Notes: generated from the letters alone by a model not told the origin. A stretch of 39,234 nucleotides of DNA from an uncultured Spirochaetaceae bacterium (GCA_964623005.1 CAZURL010000001.1:1-39234); one strand, 5' to 3'; counted from the first letter of the stretch, positions 32,124 to 38,772 are shown. Translations and numbers: made by a program.

Positions 32124-32143
32124 TGATGCCCGAAAGGGCATCA
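32124..32143. terminator. hairpin between convergent pfp and phosphodiesterase genes
   Basis: TGATGCCC-gaaa-GGGCATCA (8 bp, GNRA-type loop). Flanks are T/A-rich but contain no clean U tract. Confidence 0.5.
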
Positions 32144-32145
32144 TA

Positions 32146-33243
32146 TTATATAAGCGAACAACCATCGGCATCCATTTCGATGCCAAATGTTTTGAGAATC
32201 GTTGGTGCTATATCAACAAGAGAGCAAGTATCCTTTTTTAAAGCATAAGGGACATTGAAAGCGATAAAAGGAGGATATGGCCCTTCCTCACCTACATATC
32301 CATGCCCCGCAGGAGTTGGCGATAAGGAAAATGCATAACCCTCGTCAGCAACTGCAAAGAGAGAAAATGATTTCGGAAGATGTAAGCTTTCAAATTCACT
32401 CATTTCATATACTCTCTTCACGCCTTCAATTGCTTCTAGCTTTTGTTTCGCTTCAGCTTCGCTTATTCCATCAAGATATATCTCCGCAGTCATTCCTGTT
32501 GGATGAAGAATTATACGGCTGTCATCGCCGAAAACTATTCCCTTAATCTGCTTTCTATGCCCATGGTCTCCGACTATGAATATCTCATAATCATCCAGTA
32601 CCTCGAGAACTTTTTCCATCAGCTCTTCTATGAAAGAAAGTGCATAAGGAATATCTTTTGCTCTTGGACTCTTCATATGTTTCTGATGGTCAAGATATGA
32701 AAGATGAAGGAGCGCTAGATCCGGTCTTTGTTCTTTTATGATGGAGATAAAGACATTGGAAGCAAAAATATCCATACCAGGGGTTCGCATCCAATCAAGT
32801 TTTTCCTTATGGCGAAGATAATATTCATATCCTTTTTCAGAAGAAGCACTTTTAAATACCGGATCAGCATCATCACCTTCCCTCTTTGTCCAGATCTCAG
32901 GAACAAGGTAGTCTATATCAGCACCAGCTGTAACAGGAAAACATACTGATGCTGTTGAAAGTCCGTTCTCTTTTGCATAGTCCGTCAAAATCTTTGTTTT
33001 TATCGACTCCCTCCAGAACTGCCACTCAAAAGAAGGATGGGAAAGATTATCGATTATCTCGGTTTTCTCAGGATAAAAGCCCGATAGAATCGAGGCATGG
33101 CATGGATAGGTCTGAGCAGGCGTCACCGCCATACTCCTTATGACCTGTCCTTTTCTTAAAACCCGAGCTAAAGATGAAAAATGAGAGAATACATCCAAAT
33201 CCTCGATATCCAATGCATCGATAGATATAAGCGCAGCTTTCAT
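32146..33243 (-). CDS. alkaline-phosphatase-superfamily nucleotide pyrophosphatase/phosphodiesterase (NPP type)
   Basis: ISIDALD, TPAQTYPCHASILSGFYPEKT (Thr nucleophile context), YLDHQKH and VGDHGH metal-ligand motifs. The start overlaps the upstream stop (TAATG). Confidence 0.85.
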   Translation of the reverse strand: MKAALISIDALDIEDLDVFSHFSSLARVLRKGQVIRSMAVTPAQTYPCHASILSGFYPEKTEIIDNLSHPSFEWQFWRESIKTKILTDYAKENGLSTASVCFPVTAGADIDYLVPEIWTKREGDDADPVFKSASSEKGYEYYLRHKEKLDWMRTPGMDIFASNVFISIIKEQRPDLALLHLSYLDHQKHMKSPRAKDIPYALSFIEELMEKVLEVLDDYEIFIVGDHGHRKQIKGIVFGDDSRIILHPTGMTAEIYLDGISEAEAKQKLEAIEGVKRVYEMSEFESLHLPKSFSLFAVADEGYAFSLSPTPAGHGYVGEEGPYPPFIAFNVPYALKKDTCSLVDIAPTILKTFGIEMDADGCSLI

Positions 33244-33869
33244 TAAAACTGCCAGGAGTTGTACTCGAAAGGAGCGACCTCGGGCTTTCCGTCATCTTCC
33301 TTCTCGTTCTTGCAGTATTCAAGATACTTCTCATACACCTTTTTGATATCCTCTCCTTCGAGCTGGGGGATTACCTTGCTTGCTTCAGTCAGAAAATGTA
33401 TCTCATCTCTCCCCATTTCCCGTCCCTTTGCTGTATGAAGGTCGTAGGCATAATCAGGAACCTCTGCTACCCTTCCATGCGCAAAATCCTTGATCAGCAT
33501 ATTTTTCACATTGTCCGACGAGCGTTCCTTTTTCTGCCTGGTGAGATAGCGGATCGCATGGACAAAGAACATCGGTCTATCCCCATCCTGATACGGAAAT
33601 TCCTGCCGCATCTTATAAAGTGTATAGATAAGTTCCGGTGCATGGACATCTCCGAACCCGATATCCTCAACGCTTATCGCCAATAGCCTTCTCCACATTT
33701 TGTCCTCAAACTGTGGACTTGTGATATACATCTCATAGGCAGCGCAGAGCGCATTGTGCTCCAAGCCTCTTCTTATTGATTTCTGAAGCATGCTGATGAT
33801 TTCATCGCCAGCGATGCCATTTCTCGTAGTTACTTTTGCCCACGGATCATAGGACATAAACTCACTCAT
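33243..33869 (-). CDS. standalone RarA/MgsA C-terminal-domain-like protein, paralog B
   Basis: IISMLQKSIRRG...RRLLAISVEDIGFGDVHAP...HAIRYLTRQKKERSSD...VPDYAYDLHT parallels the E. coli RarA C-terminal region (ISAFHKSVRGS, RRCLAIASEDVGNADP, AIVYLACAPKSNA, VPVHLRNA). No P-loop. AAGGGG RBS. Confidence 0.8.
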   Translation of the reverse strand: MSEFMSYDPWAKVTTRNGIAGDEIISMLQKSIRRGLEHNALCAAYEMYITSPQFEDKMWRRLLAISVEDIGFGDVHAPELIYTLYKMRQEFPYQDGDRPMFFVHAIRYLTRQKKERSSDNVKNMLIKDFAHGRVAEVPDYAYDLHTAKGREMGRDEIHFLTEASKVIPQLEGEDIKKVYEKYLEYCKNEKEDDGKPEVAPFEYNSWQF

Positions 33870-33872
33870 TAC

Positions 33873-34697
33873 TCACCCCTTGATTCCCGAAGAAGAGACC
33901 CCTGCAACGAAGTACTTCTGCGTAAATATAAATAGAATTATTATTGGAATCGTCGCAACGGACGCACCTGCAAGCTGTACTGGGATATCAGCACCACCAC
34001 GACCTTGGAAGAACCTTATAGCGGGTGTTATAAGCTGATGATCGATTGAACTGATAAACAAATATGGATCGAGAAAGTTGTTCCATATATTAATGAAACT
34101 GAAAAGAACCACGGTTGCCAAAGCAGGACGTGAGAGTGGAATAAAGATTGATAGAAGAATCTTCGCATGTCCTAGCCCATCTATCTTTGCAGCCTCGCTC
34201 AGATCTTCGGGGACAGAGCGGAAGAACTCTGTAAGAAGCATGAGGTAGAAAACCTCGCTGATCTCCGGAAGTATTATGACCCACATACTATCGAGAAGAT
34301 GGATGTTTGAGAAATATAGATAGCGAGGAACCATTGTGGTCTCTCCGGGAATCATCAGCGTAGCCATCAGGAACGCCATTAAGAATCGGGAGCCTCTGAA
34401 TCGTATTCTGCTGAATGCATAGGCAGCTGGCAACGTGGCAATGAGACGAAGGATTATTGTTATGATCACCGTTTCAAAGGTATTTGAATACCAATCAACA
34501 AAATTCGCATGCCCAAGTATGGTTTTATAGTTACGGAGTATTGGGGTGAATGCTGCAAAGATTGGCTTATAAGTATCGCCCTGTGTCCTGAATGAGATAA
34601 TAACCATCATGGCAAAAGGAACGATCATCATCAGCCCCAGCGCCCACATAATGACTGTAAATGGAATATTACGCTTTTCTATAGGCTTTTCAGGCAT
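33873..34697 (-). CDS. CUT1 (sugar-type) ABC transporter permease, MalG-like
   Basis: 274 aa with 6 TM segments and the EAA loop EAAKIDGLGHAKILLSIFIPLSRPAL. Confidence 0.88.
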   Translation of the reverse strand: MPEKPIEKRNIPFTVIMWALGLMMIVPFAMMVIISFRTQGDTYKPIFAAFTPILRNYKTILGHANFVDWYSNTFETVIITIILRLIATLPAAYAFSRIRFRGSRFLMAFLMATLMIPGETTMVPRYLYFSNIHLLDSMWVIILPEISEVFYLMLLTEFFRSVPEDLSEAAKIDGLGHAKILLSIFIPLSRPALATVVLFSFINIWNNFLDPYLFISSIDHQLITPAIRFFQGRGGADIPVQLAGASVATIPIIILFIFTQKYFVAGVSSSGIKG

Positions 34698-35602
34698 TTG
34701 TCCCTCACTTTTGAAACTATTGCATTGATAAAGATGATAAGTATTGCGAAGAGTACGCCTTCTGCCGAAGCTACGGCATACTTACTATATGTAAAAGCAT
34801 CATCGTATATCTGAAGGGAGAGTACCCTTGATGATGTTCCTGGGCCGCCATTTGTCAGAGCAACGATTGTCGTATAATTCTTGAAGGAATTGATGATTGT
34901 TATTGTTAGCAACATAAAGAGCGCTGGTGCAATAATCGGAATCACGACATAACGAATCTTCTGCATCCTGCTCGCACCTTCAATTTCGGCAACCTCAAAT
35001 AAATCGGCAGGGACATCCTGAAGTGCTGCAAGAATCGTTATCACATTGAAGGCAAGTGCAGCCCATACGGCAATTACAGTCGCTGTAACAAGCGCAAGTC
35101 TTGGACTTGAAAACCATTGAGGCCCGGCAAAGCCAAATAAACGAAAGATTGCATTTACAGGGCCTTGCGTTGGATTGAGCATGTACTTGAACACAATACC
35201 GACAGCAATCATGTTCGTGACATAAGGAAGGTAAAACATCGTTCTTACTGCTGTGCGACCGTAAAACTTCTTATTGAAGAACATCGCAATCACAAAGCCG
35301 ATAAGCATAAGGAGAACAACATATATGAACGAGAATACAAGAGAATGGCCAAGAGATGTCCAGAATGTGGATGTACTCAGCACAGTCTTATAATTTGCAA
35401 GCCCAGCAAACGCCGTTGAAAGCCTTGACCGGAGAGAATTCCGCTGCCAGAAGCTCACCATGATGCCATAGATCATCGGATAGAGCTTAAAGAGAGCGAA
35501 CATCAGTATAAATGGCAGAACGAAGAGATATGCTGTCCTCTCGTCCCTCTTCTGCGATTTACTTAGTATAGATTTCTTCATTACTTTGAAAATGCGCCTC
35601 AT
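34679..35602 (-). CDS. CUT1 (sugar-type) ABC transporter permease, MalF-like
   Basis: EAA loop EVAEIEGASRMQKIRYVVIPIIAPAL. The start is uncertain (35602 or 35581) because the first ATG lies in the loop of a hairpin. Confidence 0.85.
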   Translation of the reverse strand: MRRIFKVMKKSILSKSQKRDERTAYLFVLPFILMFALFKLYPMIYGIMVSFWQRNSLRSRLSTAFAGLANYKTVLSTSTFWTSLGHSLVFSFIYVVLLMLIGFVIAMFFNKKFYGRTAVRTMFYLPYVTNMIAVGIVFKYMLNPTQGPVNAIFRLFGFAGPQWFSSPRLALVTATVIAVWAALAFNVITILAALQDVPADLFEVAEIEGASRMQKIRYVVIPIIAPALFMLLTITIINSFKNYTTIVALTNGGPGTSSRVLSLQIYDDAFTYSKYAVASAEGVLFAILIIFINAIVSKVRDKCLKSL

Positions 35603-35611
35603 CCGAGGCGC
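35588..35611 (-). terminator. intra-operon hairpin after SBP gene (possible partial terminator)
   Basis: Minus strand GCGCCTC-ggat-GAGGCGC followed by ATTTTC, 8 nt after the SBP stop. Confidence 0.35.
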
Positions 35612-35618
35612 CTAAGTT

Positions 35619-36920
35619 TTAAATAGAGCTTCTAATTGCCTCGTTGACACGCCTTGTTATATTATCCATCGCAACATCGAGCGACTGGAGATCAAGGAAG
35701 TACATCGTAAGCTCCTCATTAGCAATCCTATTGTATTCATCGGAAGCAACACCGATTATATCGGACTGAACAGCGCCCATGTCGTTATTAACGAGTGTTG
35801 AATAAAGATCATCAATCGTAATCTGACCATTCGAAGCCTCCGCAATAGCACCGAATGCAATCTGCCTGTCCTCTTCTGTCATTTCAGCATATGCAGGTAT
35901 ACCACCTTCGAAGCGCCACTGATTCTCAGCAAGCCAGATGACATACTCAAGCGCCTCTTCAACATGTTCTGCATTAACGTTGATTGAGTTATATGCTGCG
36001 CTTACGATATTGTTATTGTATCCAGGATTTGCTGGTGTGACGGCAATACCGTATCTCCAATTCCTAGGATAGTCTTCCTGACTATTAAGAAGTCTTGTGA
36101 ACCAGTTTCCCTGAGCAAACATAGCAAGACGATCACCAGCTATTGCATAATAATTCCACGATACATTCTCGTTATGAATCTCAGATACAGGCATCTGGCA
36201 ACCGATTACATTAGACAGCTCATAATACCATTCGATAGCTTCCCTGCGTGCAGGTGTATCGAAATTGCACATGCCATCTTCTGTATAGAGAGGATCTCCC
36301 ATCTGTACTGCACTGATAATATACCATGGGTTCTCTGCATTCATGAAAGAACCATAGATACCAGCACTGCTGTCTGTAAGCGCGATAGCTGTATTTTTAT
36401 AATCCTCCCATGTCCATGCGCCATCTGGATAAGGAATACCAGCGCGATCAAAAAGATCTTTATTGTAGAAGACGCAATATGCCTCAACCTTGAAAGGCAA
36501 AGAGTAATAATCGCCATCGTCCTCGATTGGAAGATTAACGCCATATTGCTTTTCCGCATCGATACCTTTAGCCTCAACAAGATCTCGAAGAGGCATAAAG
36601 AAACCTGCTTCAACTCTTGTCTGATAATACTTTGGTCCGAGAGAAGGAATAACATCGATTTTACTGCCTGCTGTCAGGTCGATATTGATCTTTGCATCAT
36701 GATCTGCATCATTTCCCGGTGTTGGCTGCACAACAACATGGATGCCAGTTTCTTCCTCGAAGGCTTTATTCATCTCGTTGTACCATACTTCGGTGGCATA
36801 AGATGCTCTACAGACAGTTGTGACAATCCTCTGATCCGAGACCGAGCTTTCACTGCCACCTCTAGCAAAGAGCAAGGTTGCAGCAAGAAGCATAAAAGAG
36901 AGGGTAAGAATCCTTTTCAT
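35619..36920 (-). CDS. CUT1 family extracellular solute-binding protein
   Basis: Signal peptide MKRILTLSFMLLAATLLFARGGS (no Cys). About 430 aa with family-1 SBP composition. AAGGAAG RBS. The ATG at 36920 lies 3 nt inside the upstream stop region. Confidence 0.88.
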   Translation of the reverse strand: MKRILTLSFMLLAATLLFARGGSESSVSDQRIVTTVCRASYATEVWYNEMNKAFEEETGIHVVVQPTPGNDADHDAKINIDLTAGSKIDVIPSLGPKYYQTRVEAGFFMPLRDLVEAKGIDAEKQYGVNLPIEDDGDYYSLPFKVEAYCVFYNKDLFDRAGIPYPDGAWTWEDYKNTAIALTDSSAGIYGSFMNAENPWYIISAVQMGDPLYTEDGMCNFDTPARREAIEWYYELSNVIGCQMPVSEIHNENVSWNYYAIAGDRLAMFAQGNWFTRLLNSQEDYPRNWRYGIAVTPANPGYNNNIVSAAYNSINVNAEHVEEALEYVIWLAENQWRFEGGIPAYAEMTEEDRQIAFGAIAEASNGQITIDDLYSTLVNNDMGAVQSDIIGVASDEYNRIANEELTMYFLDLQSLDVAMDNITRRVNEAIRSSI

Positions 36921-36922
36921 AT

Positions 36923-37498
36923 TCAATCTTCCTTCTTTTCTGATTCAAGTATCTTCAATATCCTTTCCCGGTAGGTCTTGTCGCGACCATCCCATTCGGG
37001 ATAAACCTTAGAGCCTTCAGCATAGAAGTCATTCTCATTTCTGCCCTCAAGCTGTCCTTGGAGGGTATGTTTGTCGATAGCATAATCAGGAATCTGTGGC
37101 CTCAAAGTCCCTTTCTTATACTCTTTCATGATCCAATTATACATTTCGTCGCTGGATCTATCTTTCTTGCTCTTACAGAGATAACGTACTGCATGGATTG
37201 CAAGAAGCCCTCTATCACCAGGCTGCTTTGTAACACGCCTCATTTGATCGAGCTCCCCGATAAGAATCGGTGCAAGTTCATTGGCAAACCCCACATCCTC
37301 TACGCTTATTGTGCGTAGGCGGAACCAAAGGTAGTCCTCCATATCCTCGCTTGTAATCATCATCTCATAAGCAAGCACGGCTGCATTCTCTTCATGGCCA
37401 CGCCTGATCTCTTTCTGTAATGCAGAAATTACAAGATCCGCTGCAAGTCCGCTTATCGTCTTGCACTTCTGCCATGGATCATAAGGATAATTTTCCAT
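36923..37498 (-). CDS. standalone RarA/MgsA C-terminal-domain-like protein, paralog A
   Basis: VISALQKEIRRG...FRLRTISVEDVGFANELAP...HAVRYLCKSKKDRSSD...IPDYAIDKHT. Roughly 35-45% identical to paralog B by eye. GGAGGA 3 nt before the ATG at 37498. Confidence 0.8.
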   Translation of the reverse strand: MENYPYDPWQKCKTISGLAADLVISALQKEIRRGHEENAAVLAYEMMITSEDMEDYLWFRLRTISVEDVGFANELAPILIGELDQMRRVTKQPGDRGLLAIHAVRYLCKSKKDRSSDEMYNWIMKEYKKGTLRPQIPDYAIDKHTLQGQLEGRNENDFYAEGSKVYPEWDGRDKTYRERILKILESEKKED

Positions 37499-37601
37499 GT
37501 TTCCTCCCAAAGCTCTTAAAATGTAGCATAGTAAATTGCTGAAAGCTTGTGTTTTTGGCCTTTAAACTTTAGGATTTGTATCATATTCACATATCTAGGT
37601 A

Positions 37602-38486
37602 ATGTTTTGGATGAAAGACCGAAGGGAAATTGTTCATACAGCAGGAGATGCTGATCAATGGTATTTCTCAAAACGGGTAAGCGATCTCTTTCCGTTTTCC
37701 AGCACGCTCTTCCGAGAGGGAGGCTATGGTCTTTATAGGCCTGGGTTCTGGGTTGAACGCCCAGCGATGAAAGGATTTTCAACGATAATCATATCATTTG
37801 CAGGGAAAGGCCACTTCAAGATGGAAGATGGCGAAGAGGCAATCCTTGATGAAGGGAGTATCTTTATCTCCTCTCCAAAAGGTCAATGGCATCGAGAAGA
37901 GACCATAGGCTCTGAGCCATGGGAACATGTATGGTTATCGTTCTTTGCGTCATCCTCGTTACTCCCTACAGAGAATTTTGACTGGAAAATACTAAAGACA
38001 TCGGAAACAAAGCTTTATAGGGAACTTACTCTTCGCATCATAAGGGAAGACCTGCATACAACAAGTGATAGCACCGCATCGATAGAACTATGCGAGTATC
38101 TTATACTATTGACACTAAGGCGAACACTCAGATCATCAGAGAGTGCAGCTGCAGGTCATGTTAAATCCCAATTTGAACAGCTATGGAATACTGTATCAGG
38201 ATCTCTCAATCAGGAATGGAATGTCGAGAGGTTATGCAGTGAGATGAACTATTCACGTTCCCAGCTTACAAGGCTTTGCAGGGGAATATATGGACAATCC
38301 CCCGGAGAGAAAATAAAAGCGATGAGAATGGAACATGCAAAACTGCTTCTTGCAAATACTCCAAAACCAATCATAGAGATTGCAGAAACAGTTGGCTACA
38401 CATCCCCATCCCTATTCTCTACTGCATTTTCAAATCATGTTGGAATGAGTCCGAGGGAATATAGAAAAGGAAGAAAGCTTATATAA
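37602..38486 (+). CDS. AraC family transcriptional regulator (cupin-like sensor + AraC HTH)
   Basis: C-terminal WNVERLCSEMNYSRSQLTRLCRGIYGQSP...IAETVGYTSPSLFSTAFSNHVGMSPREYR. Divergent from the ABC operon. Confidence 0.85.
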   Translation: MFWMKDRREIVHTAGDADQWYFSKRVSDLFPFSSTLFREGGYGLYRPGFWVERPAMKGFSTIIISFAGKGHFKMEDGEEAILDEGSIFISSPKGQWHREETIGSEPWEHVWLSFFASSSLLPTENFDWKILKTSETKLYRELTLRIIREDLHTTSDSTASIELCEYLILLTLRRTLRSSESAAAGHVKSQFEQLWNTVSGSLNQEWNVERLCSEMNYSRSQLTRLCRGIYGQSPGEKIKAMRMEHAKLLLANTPKPIIEIAETVGYTSPSLFSTAFSNHVGMSPREYRKGRKLI

Positions 38487-38772
38487 AGTGATGCCGTTTT
38501 TCTTTATCAGAGCTTTCACGATAGAAAACAGCCGTGAAACCCGTTACCGCAACAAGAAGCGAGGCAGTATGCTCAGAGAGCTTGGATGCAATATCCTTTG
38601 CCTCTTCCTTTGATGATTGAAAGCGGATCTTTACAAGCTCATGAGCCTCCAGCGCTTGATCAAGCGCGCTGACAACATTCTCCGTCAGACCGCTTTTCCC
38701 TACATAGACAATCGGTGAAAGCGAGGACGCAATAGAGCGAAGCGTCGCCCTCTCCTTACTCGTTACTGTCAT
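38479..38772 (-). CDS. yhbY: CRM-domain RNA-binding protein YhbY
   Basis: LTSKERATLRSIASSLSPIVYVGKSGLTENVVSALDQALEAHELVKIRF is the YhbY pattern. GGAGG 5 nt before the ATG at 38772. 17-nt overlap with the upstream ligase gene. Confidence 0.85.
   Translation of the reverse strand: MTVTSKERATLRSIASSLSPIVYVGKSGLTENVVSALDQALEAHELVKIRFQSSKEEAKDIASKLSEHTASLLVAVTGFTAVFYRESSDKEKRHHFI

Follow-up and report, generated by a model that had tools for sequence, protein, structure and literature searches.

Free-standing homologues of the RarA C-terminal domain in a transporter island of an uncultured spirochaete and in transport operons of several phyla

What are two small proteins resembling the C-terminal domain of RarA, a DNA-repair ATPase, doing in a bacterial operon for solute import? 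The question is raised by a 39,234-nucleotide (nt) stretch of DNA from an uncultured Spirochaetaceae bacterium (GCA_964623005.1, CAZURL010000001.1:1-39234), which we call the window. Between positions 32146 and 38486, this gut spirochaete carries a 6.3-kb island of seven genes. An AraC-type regulator gene on the plus strand diverges from a minus-strand operon of six genes, which code, in this order, for an MgsA_C-like protein that we call A, the solute-binding protein (SBP) and two permeases of a CUT1-type ATP-binding cassette (ABC) importer, a second MgsA_C-like protein, B, and a phosphodiesterase of the nucleotide pyrophosphatase/phosphodiesterase (NPP) type. This gene order and these strands, proposed in an initial annotation made from the sequence without database searches, were confirmed by open reading frame (ORF) calling and Pfam assignments. 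In the reading that we favour, with a probability of roughly one half, the locus is a self-contained uptake island in which A and B form a cytoplasmic oligomer that handles a nutrient with a ribosyl or phosphoester group and takes no part in DNA replication. We are much more confident of the anatomy of the locus, the homology of the two proteins and their linkage to transporters than of this biochemical role.

Relatives of the RarA tail without an ATPase

A (191 amino acids (aa); minus strand, 36923..37498) and B (208 aa; minus strand, 33243..33869) show 48% identity over 188 aa (E = 2e-56), as befits the paralogues that they had been taken for. Both obtain 26.7 bits (E = 5.9e-6) with the Pfam model MgsA_C (PF12002), whose gathering threshold is 27 bits; in a search of the genome, the scores were 26.8 bits for B (27.1 with its neighbours in frame) and 26.6 for A. 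A precomputed PF12002 match is carried by most of their close homologues. Searches of the PDB with phmmer returned, for A and B, only C-terminal fragments of RarA/MgsA and E. coli MgsA (3pvs among the entries), the best values quoted being 9e-5 for B with 2r9g and 6e-4 for A with 3bge. When a 61-sequence profile of the family was aligned by hhalign with the RarA C-terminal domains of the lineage, the probability was 92.5% (E = 4.9e-7, 117 columns), and the motifs listed in the initial annotation were superposed in that alignment. The AlphaFold2 model of B is all-helical, with a predicted local distance difference test (pLDDT) score of 92.6. Foldseek found 18 significant matches to it in the PDB, all of them RarA C-terminal fragments (E down to 7.5e-7), and clamp-loader collar domains come next, below significance. 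The likeness to the C-terminal region of RarA, first proposed from motifs, is thus borne out by Pfam, phmmer, hhalign and Foldseek, at an identity of about 20-24%.

A and B share the helical fold of the C-terminal domain of RarA/MgsA/Mgs1/WRNIP1 (PF12002; 3PVS, 2R9G, 3BGE, 3CTD, 8G28). Several motifs of the family can be paired with those of RarA, namely ISxLQKSIRRG with ISAFIKSLRGS, RRLLAISVEDIGFGD with RRMIILAAEDVGMAD, HAIRYLxxxKxxSS with HAAIYLSTCPKSNS and EVPDYAxD with EVPNHLKD. In RarA, this is the tetramerisation domain (PMC6374455). Unlike RarA, however, A and B have neither the AAA+ ATPase nor the lid domain and cover the C-terminal domain only. Neither protein matches AAA, AAA_assoc_2 or a Walker motif in Pfam, or a RarA model in NCBIfam, so that the reported lack of Walker motifs stands. 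The family also has invariant residues of its own (YDPW, AYEMYITS, GDR and DxHT), and its genes are found in transport or catabolic operons, not as a DNA-repair gene. About 15 polar residues in loops or at helix ends are invariant, including D22, Q29, R33, E46, E68, D69, D97, K114, R116, D143, H145 and T146. A further difference from RarA is the conserved C-terminal tail of B-type proteins (PFxYNxWQ[FY] in B). The general form of this tail, F-x-[YF]-[NDS]-x-W-Q, is found in B-type proteins and in those of the phosphotransferase system (PTS) type, and A-type proteins, A included, do not have it. One might speculate that the tail is a docking motif.

A canonical RarA is separately encoded in the same genome (contig C7, 215 bits). 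A and B are therefore extra, ATPase-less homologues of the RarA tail, not RarA itself. The start of A is most likely the ATG at 37498 rather than the TTG at 37510 chosen by the ORF caller, as GGGAGG lies 5 nt upstream and the resulting 191 aa match a 99%-identical homologue (P0271). As for the canonical RarA of this spirochaete lineage (G000 contig C7, L085:694-2826; L091-L096), it is 710-745 aa long: beyond the usual part of about 440 aa, a further 270-300 aa or so at the C-terminus are conserved.

Homologue searches retrieved 921 proteins with B as query and 1607 with A. Their database names are 'hypothetical', 'MgsA AAA+ ATPase C-terminal domain-containing', 'AAA family ATPase' or, automatically, 'RarA'. 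When clustered at 50%, they fall into 127 clusters at E<=1e-30 and into 1467 at E<=1e-10; most members are about 200 aa long, and some are tandem fusions of two domains. As this length is kept throughout the family, A and B are not gene fragments. B-type proteins are 57-75% identical across Spirochaetota, Bacillota, Chloroflexota, Gemmatimonadota and Lentisphaerota, and copies of both types, A and B, are present together in Spirochaetota, Chloroflexota and Lentisphaerota. Independent tandem pairs are present at loci L050/L056 and L077, A-A fusions at L010/L012, and other two-domain fusions exist. In the literature accessible to us, our searches found no paper on the standalone family or its operon contexts, in agreement with the initial annotation, to which no description of the association was known; the fold is known, and the conserved functional setting in which it occurs here is undescribed.

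Some family members depart from the usual length. At two loci (L010:3804-4952 and L012:3791-4939), the place of A is taken by a protein of 382 aa in which two A-type domains, each with 71-76% identity to A, are fused in tandem. L010 bears the label Flexilinea (Chloroflexota), and its B protein is 89% identical to that of the window; the contig may be mis-binned. P0216 (626 aa) and P0228 (1049 aa) have an insertion within the MgsA_C-like region and, ahead of that region, a long N-terminal part without a Pfam match. Fusions with ABC_membrane and anticodon-binding domains were set aside, as they look like fragmentary gene calls.

Transporter genes as recurrent neighbours

The neighbourhoods of standalone family members were surveyed at 88 loci, whose ORFs were labelled, by comparing genes within three genes of the anchor with genes at least five genes away at the same loci. 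Transporter genes account for 132/534 of the near genes and 23/368 of the distant ones (odds ratio (OR) 4.9, p = 5e-14), and at least one lies within three genes in 56 of the 88 loci. They belong to four classes: CUT1, Bmp-type ABC, lactose/cellobiose PTS and major facilitator superfamily (MFS). The fixed test was repeated on metagenome loci, of which 14 independent, PTS-dominated ones were left after the removal of near-duplicates, and the excess was found again (13/76 versus 3/81, OR 5.4, p = 0.007). The linkage to transporters thus recurs in several phyla and in the metagenome set, and an importer of any of the four classes is the robust partner of the family.

Nucleoside-type enzymes, in families picked post hoc, are also enriched within three genes (36/534 versus 7/368; OR 3.7, p = 7e-4). 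Enzymes encoded in the same operons include nucleoside hydrolase, purine nucleoside phosphorylase (PNP), deoxyribosyltransferase, ribokinase, SurE and NPP. Such nucleoside/nucleotide contexts come back in several phyla, in architectures independent of one another, without being universal. Regulator genes within three genes at the 88 loci are of the AraC (23), RpiR (9), LacI (6) and PRD (1) types.

The architectures vary with the lineage. Sphaerochaetaceae-type loci also have a divergent AraC gene, followed by A-SBP-permease-permease-B with or without NPP, and Oscillospiraceae have permease-permease-SBP-MgsA_C, optionally with MsmK before and AraC after it. In Bacillaceae and Paenibacillaceae, CUT1 genes and MgsA_C are followed by IU nucleoside hydrolase, Amidohydro_1, sometimes SGL, and nucleoside deoxyribosyltransferase genes. 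Desulfitibacter and its relatives have the order LacI, MgsA_C, DeoD-type PNP, Bmp ABC system, DeoC and PfkB, and in Lachnospiraceae a divergent LacI gene adjoins MgsA_C, MFS, NCS2 purine permease and FAD protein genes. The PTS-type loci of Clostridium, Erysipelotrichales and Paraclostridium have either a divergent RpiR gene with MgsA_C and a lactose/cellobiose-family EIIC, or a PRD regulator with EIIA, EIIB, EIIC and MgsA_C. Victivallales loci read ADP-ribosylglycohydrolase-MFS-MFS-MgsA_C-MgsA_C, and Chloroflexota loci of the A type PfkB-Amidohydro_1-IU nucleoside hydrolase-M20-MgsA_C. In Longibaculum muris (L080:9929-10540), a gene of the uracil-DNA-glycosylase superfamily comes directly after the MgsA_C-like/PTS EIIC pair. 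Carriers of the family that can be cultured include Niallia tiangongensis, Paenibacillus beijingensis, Clostridium paraputrificum, Bullifex porci and Sphaerochaeta.

Within the genus, the cassette is accessory. About 10 of 25 same-genus genomes have standalone copies, as against 0 of 16 genomes that represent other families of the class, and RarA itself is nearly universal among the same genomes. In the window, 32146-38486 is flanked by a pyrophosphate (PPi)-phosphofructokinase gene on one side and by YhbY-like and acyl-CoA-ligase genes on the other. At the empty site of the cassette-free genomes G001, G019 and G005, these same genes directly follow one another, which makes the seven genes a discrete indel. 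A tree of the family places the B proteins of spirochaetes among Oscillospiraceae sequences, and this indicates horizontal transfer. We saw no sign that the family stands in for phosphopentomutase, DeoB being absent almost genus-wide regardless of the cassette and the lone genome with DeoB having the cassette. Nor was there a sign that it stands in for ribose pyranase, as G014 and G020 have both RbsD and the cassette.

Importer, phosphodiesterase and proposed function

The CUT1 importer consists of an extracellular SBP (minus strand, 35619..36920), which has an N-terminal signal sequence and most likely starts at the ATG at 36920, and of permeases 1 (307 aa; minus strand, 34679..35602) and 2 (274 aa; minus strand, 33873..34697). 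Pfam gives the SBP 98.3 bits with SBP_bac_1, and the two permeases 66 and 44.6 bits with BPD_transp_1. NCBIfam names neither A nor B, and the importer meets none of its characterised equivalogs, the Ugp, Mal and Glc models all remaining far under their cut-offs. The operon has no ABC ATPase gene, as was initially remarked, and contig C62 of the same genome carries one of the MsmK type (49% identity along its entire length, 365 aa). CUT1 systems ordinarily may have an ATPase that is encoded elsewhere and shared. Given this MsmK-type gene, there is nothing unusual in an operon that has no ATPase gene of its own, and the ATPase of contig C62 probably serves the importer. With one SBP_bac_1 protein, two BPD_transp_1 permeases and an ATPase elsewhere, the system resembles CUT1 importers with a shared MsmK/MsiK-type ATPase (Ugp, Mal, Msm). 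It differs from known CUT1 systems in that it has no equivalog-level match and is bracketed by two MgsA_C-like genes. The transporter is orthologous only to those of Sphaerochaetaceae-type loci; compared with other types of operon, its permeases show 23-32% identity and its SBP has no match, and the idea of transferring a substrate from the nucleoside-enzyme operons was dropped for these reasons.

As for the NPP-type enzyme of the alkaline-phosphatase superfamily (365 aa; minus strand, 32146..33243), it obtains 82.2 bits with PF01663 (Phosphodiest; cut-off 23) and matches ENPP1 and ENPP4 weakly (E about 4e-4). All metal-ligand and nucleophile positions are present with the spacing of the family (D9, T45, N66, D185, H189, D226, H227 and H314); we take their roles, a two-metal site and a Thr nucleophile, to be those of the Xanthomonas enzyme. 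It shares PF01663, the full metal ligands and the Thr nucleophile with bacterial NPP (Xanthomonas NPP, 2GSN) and ENPP. In contrast with characterised NPPs, which are secreted or periplasmic, it is very divergent, translationally coupled to an MgsA_C-like gene and devoid of a signal peptide, since the protein begins (MKAALISID...) directly at the first metal-binding strand. It is therefore cytoplasmic, and should hydrolyse an imported phosphodiester or pyrophosphate in that compartment. An NPP gene adjoins a family member in 12 of the 88 loci, Oscillospiraceae included.

In one genome of the same genus, G007 (L097, G007:C81:4500-24400), an A-SBP-permease-permease-B cassette is followed, with tight spacing, by a second cassette in the order DeoR, haloacid dehalogenase (HAD) phosphatase, SurE nucleotidase, ABC ATPase, two permeases, SBP, a third MgsA_C-like protein and three NPP paralogues in tandem. 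This third protein is very divergent (36-42% identical to A and B), and the mutual identity of the three NPPs is 45-49%. Among the best PDB matches of the second SBP, UgpB entries come after a 'sugar ABC transporter' series, 7C0x, which is probably that of the Thermus dinucleotide (U3G) binder. A CUT1 protein of Thermus thermophilus that binds the dinucleotide U3G and is close to UgpB does exist (Chandravanshi et al. 2021, cited in PMC12718374). This binder and UgpB show that phosphodiesters or dinucleotides can be ligands of CUT1 binding proteins.

The initial annotation had suggested that the MgsA_C-like proteins might be adaptors, regulators or factors that process the substrate. We propose that the AraC-type regulator controls the six-gene operon and that the CUT1 importer, energised in trans by the shared MsmK-type ATPase, takes in a nutrient. 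A and B would form a cytoplasmic oligomer, probably an A/B hetero-oligomer, which would bind or convert the compound taken up, with its ribosyl or phosphoester group, or a common product derived from it, and would work alongside the cytoplasmic NPP enzyme. An even-numbered oligomer fits with the co-occurrence of A and B, the tandem pairs, the A-A fusions and the tetramerisation of the RarA domain. That the small protein is a soluble handler of the imported compound, rather than a specific adaptor of a transporter or regulator, is suggested by its conservation, which is far higher than that of the accompanying transporters, by its association with four unrelated transporter classes and four regulator families, and by its invariant polar residues in loops and helix ends.

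It is tempting, if doubtful, to extend this proposal to RarA and to imagine that the loop motifs of the RarA/WRNIP1 tail and of the standalone family form a nucleoside/nucleotide binding or catalytic site. If true, A/B oligomers would represent a new class of cytoplasmic proteins needed to use imported nucleic-acid-derived nutrients, and the 'structural' RarA tail would gain a role in ligand recognition, for instance at DNA ends. Until now, this domain had been met only as the tail by which a universal DNA-repair ATPase oligomerises; it occurs by itself as well, as a very strongly conserved protein family, in nutrient-uptake operons of Spirochaetota, Bacillota, Chloroflexota, Lentisphaerota and others, common gut bacteria included, and public annotation at present mislabels these genes as replication proteins. 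Once known, the function of the family would annotate thousands of genes called 'hypothetical' or mis-named 'RarA' or 'AAA family ATPase'; it could bring to light a step of nucleoside, nucleotide or glycoside salvage that has so far gone unnoticed, and might tell us what is recognised by the conserved motifs of the RarA/WRNIP1 tail.

Several observations weigh against a handler of ribosyl or phosphoester compounds. The excess of nucleoside enzymes was not repeated in the 14 metagenome loci (3/76 versus 2/81), the label families had been chosen after the data were seen, and many PTS-type and Chloroflexota loci have no nucleoside or nucleotide enzyme nearby. The Foldseek search of the PDB with the B model matched no enzyme fold, and the domain fusions among the longer family members show no recognisable partner domain. 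In the AlphaFold2 model of the natural A-A fusion of L012 (pLDDT 57, predicted template-modelling score 0.36), no interface is readable. Finally, the closest solved relatives of the window SBP bind sugars or oligosaccharides, and this SBP is only 24% identical to the second SBP of G007 and does not resemble UgpB.

The MgsA_C-like proteins might instead be regulatory adaptors that sense the cytoplasmic substrate or the state of the transporter and, rather than act on the substrate, modulate the importer or an adjacent transcription factor. Their genes are very often the first or last of the operon and adjoin a regulator gene, their fold is a helical protein-protein interaction domain, and a conserved protein partner could account for their very high conservation. 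However, a common direct partner is hard to picture among unrelated regulator families and transporter classes, and the invariant polar loop residues look more like a ligand site, so that we hold this alternative to be possible but clearly less probable than a soluble handler. We find it more unlikely still that the proteins are dispensable passengers of a scavenging system in which the importer brings in a glycerophosphodiester-like compound for hydrolysis by the NPP enzyme. The resemblance to Ugp-type scavenging that the initial annotation had seen holds in part: the NPP enzyme is cytoplasmic with its catalytic residues intact, its gene recurs next to the family in the 12 loci mentioned, and the second cassette of G007 combines SurE, a HAD phosphatase and three NPPs with a UgpB-like SBP. 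Against the label, the importer of the window scores 18.5 bits for UgpB (cut-off 411), 96.2 for UgpA (335) and 74.5 for UgpE (297), and Pfam identifies no GDPD-type UgpQ/GlpQ in the operon, the sole hydrolase being of the PF01663 NPP type. Moreover, the enzymes that recur across the family are nucleoside/nucleotide enzymes, and the small proteins are the most conserved ones of the operon and persist without NPP, which is not what passengers would do.

A role in DNA metabolism, in which mimics of the RarA domain co-assemble with RarA or titrate it, thereby coupling nucleoside supply to replication restart, would make sense of the ancestry and motifs shared with the tetramerisation domain, the presence of RarA in the same genome and the nucleoside-salvage contexts. 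Nevertheless, the low identity to the RarA domain, the location of the genes in catabolic or transport operons under sugar-type regulators and the accessory nature of the cassette in a genus where RarA is nearly universal make such a role highly improbable. We give hardly any credence to a defence system, with NPP as a PglZ-like component, or to cargo of a mobile element. The NPP protein does match PglZ weakly (E = 0.005), and the island, a discrete indel, is bounded by an inverted repeat of 23 nt. However, a defence system is disfavoured, as PADLOC gave no match for A, B or NPP; the island contains no transposase or integrase, the inverted repeat is absent from other cassette-bearing loci, and the gene content is typical of solute uptake.

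Operon junctions, regulator and island ends

Rereading of the DNA confirmed the near-continuous coupling of the operon. The TGA stop of A is separated by 2 nt from the ATG of the SBP gene, a 16-nt gap precedes permease 1, the two permease genes overlap by 19 nt, permease 2 and B are 3 nt apart, and B and NPP overlap in TAATG. Directly 3' of the NPP stop lies a hairpin terminator (minus strand, 32124..32143; TGATGCCC-TTTC-GGGCATCA, followed by a T-rich tail), which is shared with the convergent gene for PPi-phosphofructokinase. A control region (37499..37601) separates the operon from the divergent regulator gene, and a search of it for promoter consensus sequences gave no significant match.

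The regulator (294 aa; plus strand, 37602..38486) scores 82.1 bits with HTH_18 (cut-off 33.6) and 19.2 with the AraC_binding domain (cut-off 21.1). Its gene and the convergent YhbY-like gene on the minus strand overlap by 8 nt at their 3' ends (38479-38486), with no terminator between them. The 23-nt inverted repeat, with 20/23 complementary positions, lies exactly at both ends of the island (32133..32155 and 38477..38499), and its score is above those of all 300 shuffles. Each arm includes the three final codons (CTT ATA TAA, L-I-stop) of NPP or AraC, with some 13 nt (TGATGCC[C/G]TTT) beyond them; on the opposite strand, the right arm also holds the last codons of the YhbY-like gene. The repeat was rejected as a conserved feature of a mobile cassette, as it is present only in the window and in 0/13 other cassette-bearing loci. 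The C-terminus of the YhbY-like protein, encoded partly in the right arm, reads KRHHFI in the window and KRIYKI in the orthologues at empty sites. The sequencing runs that hold the sequence are DNA runs from bird metagenomes only.

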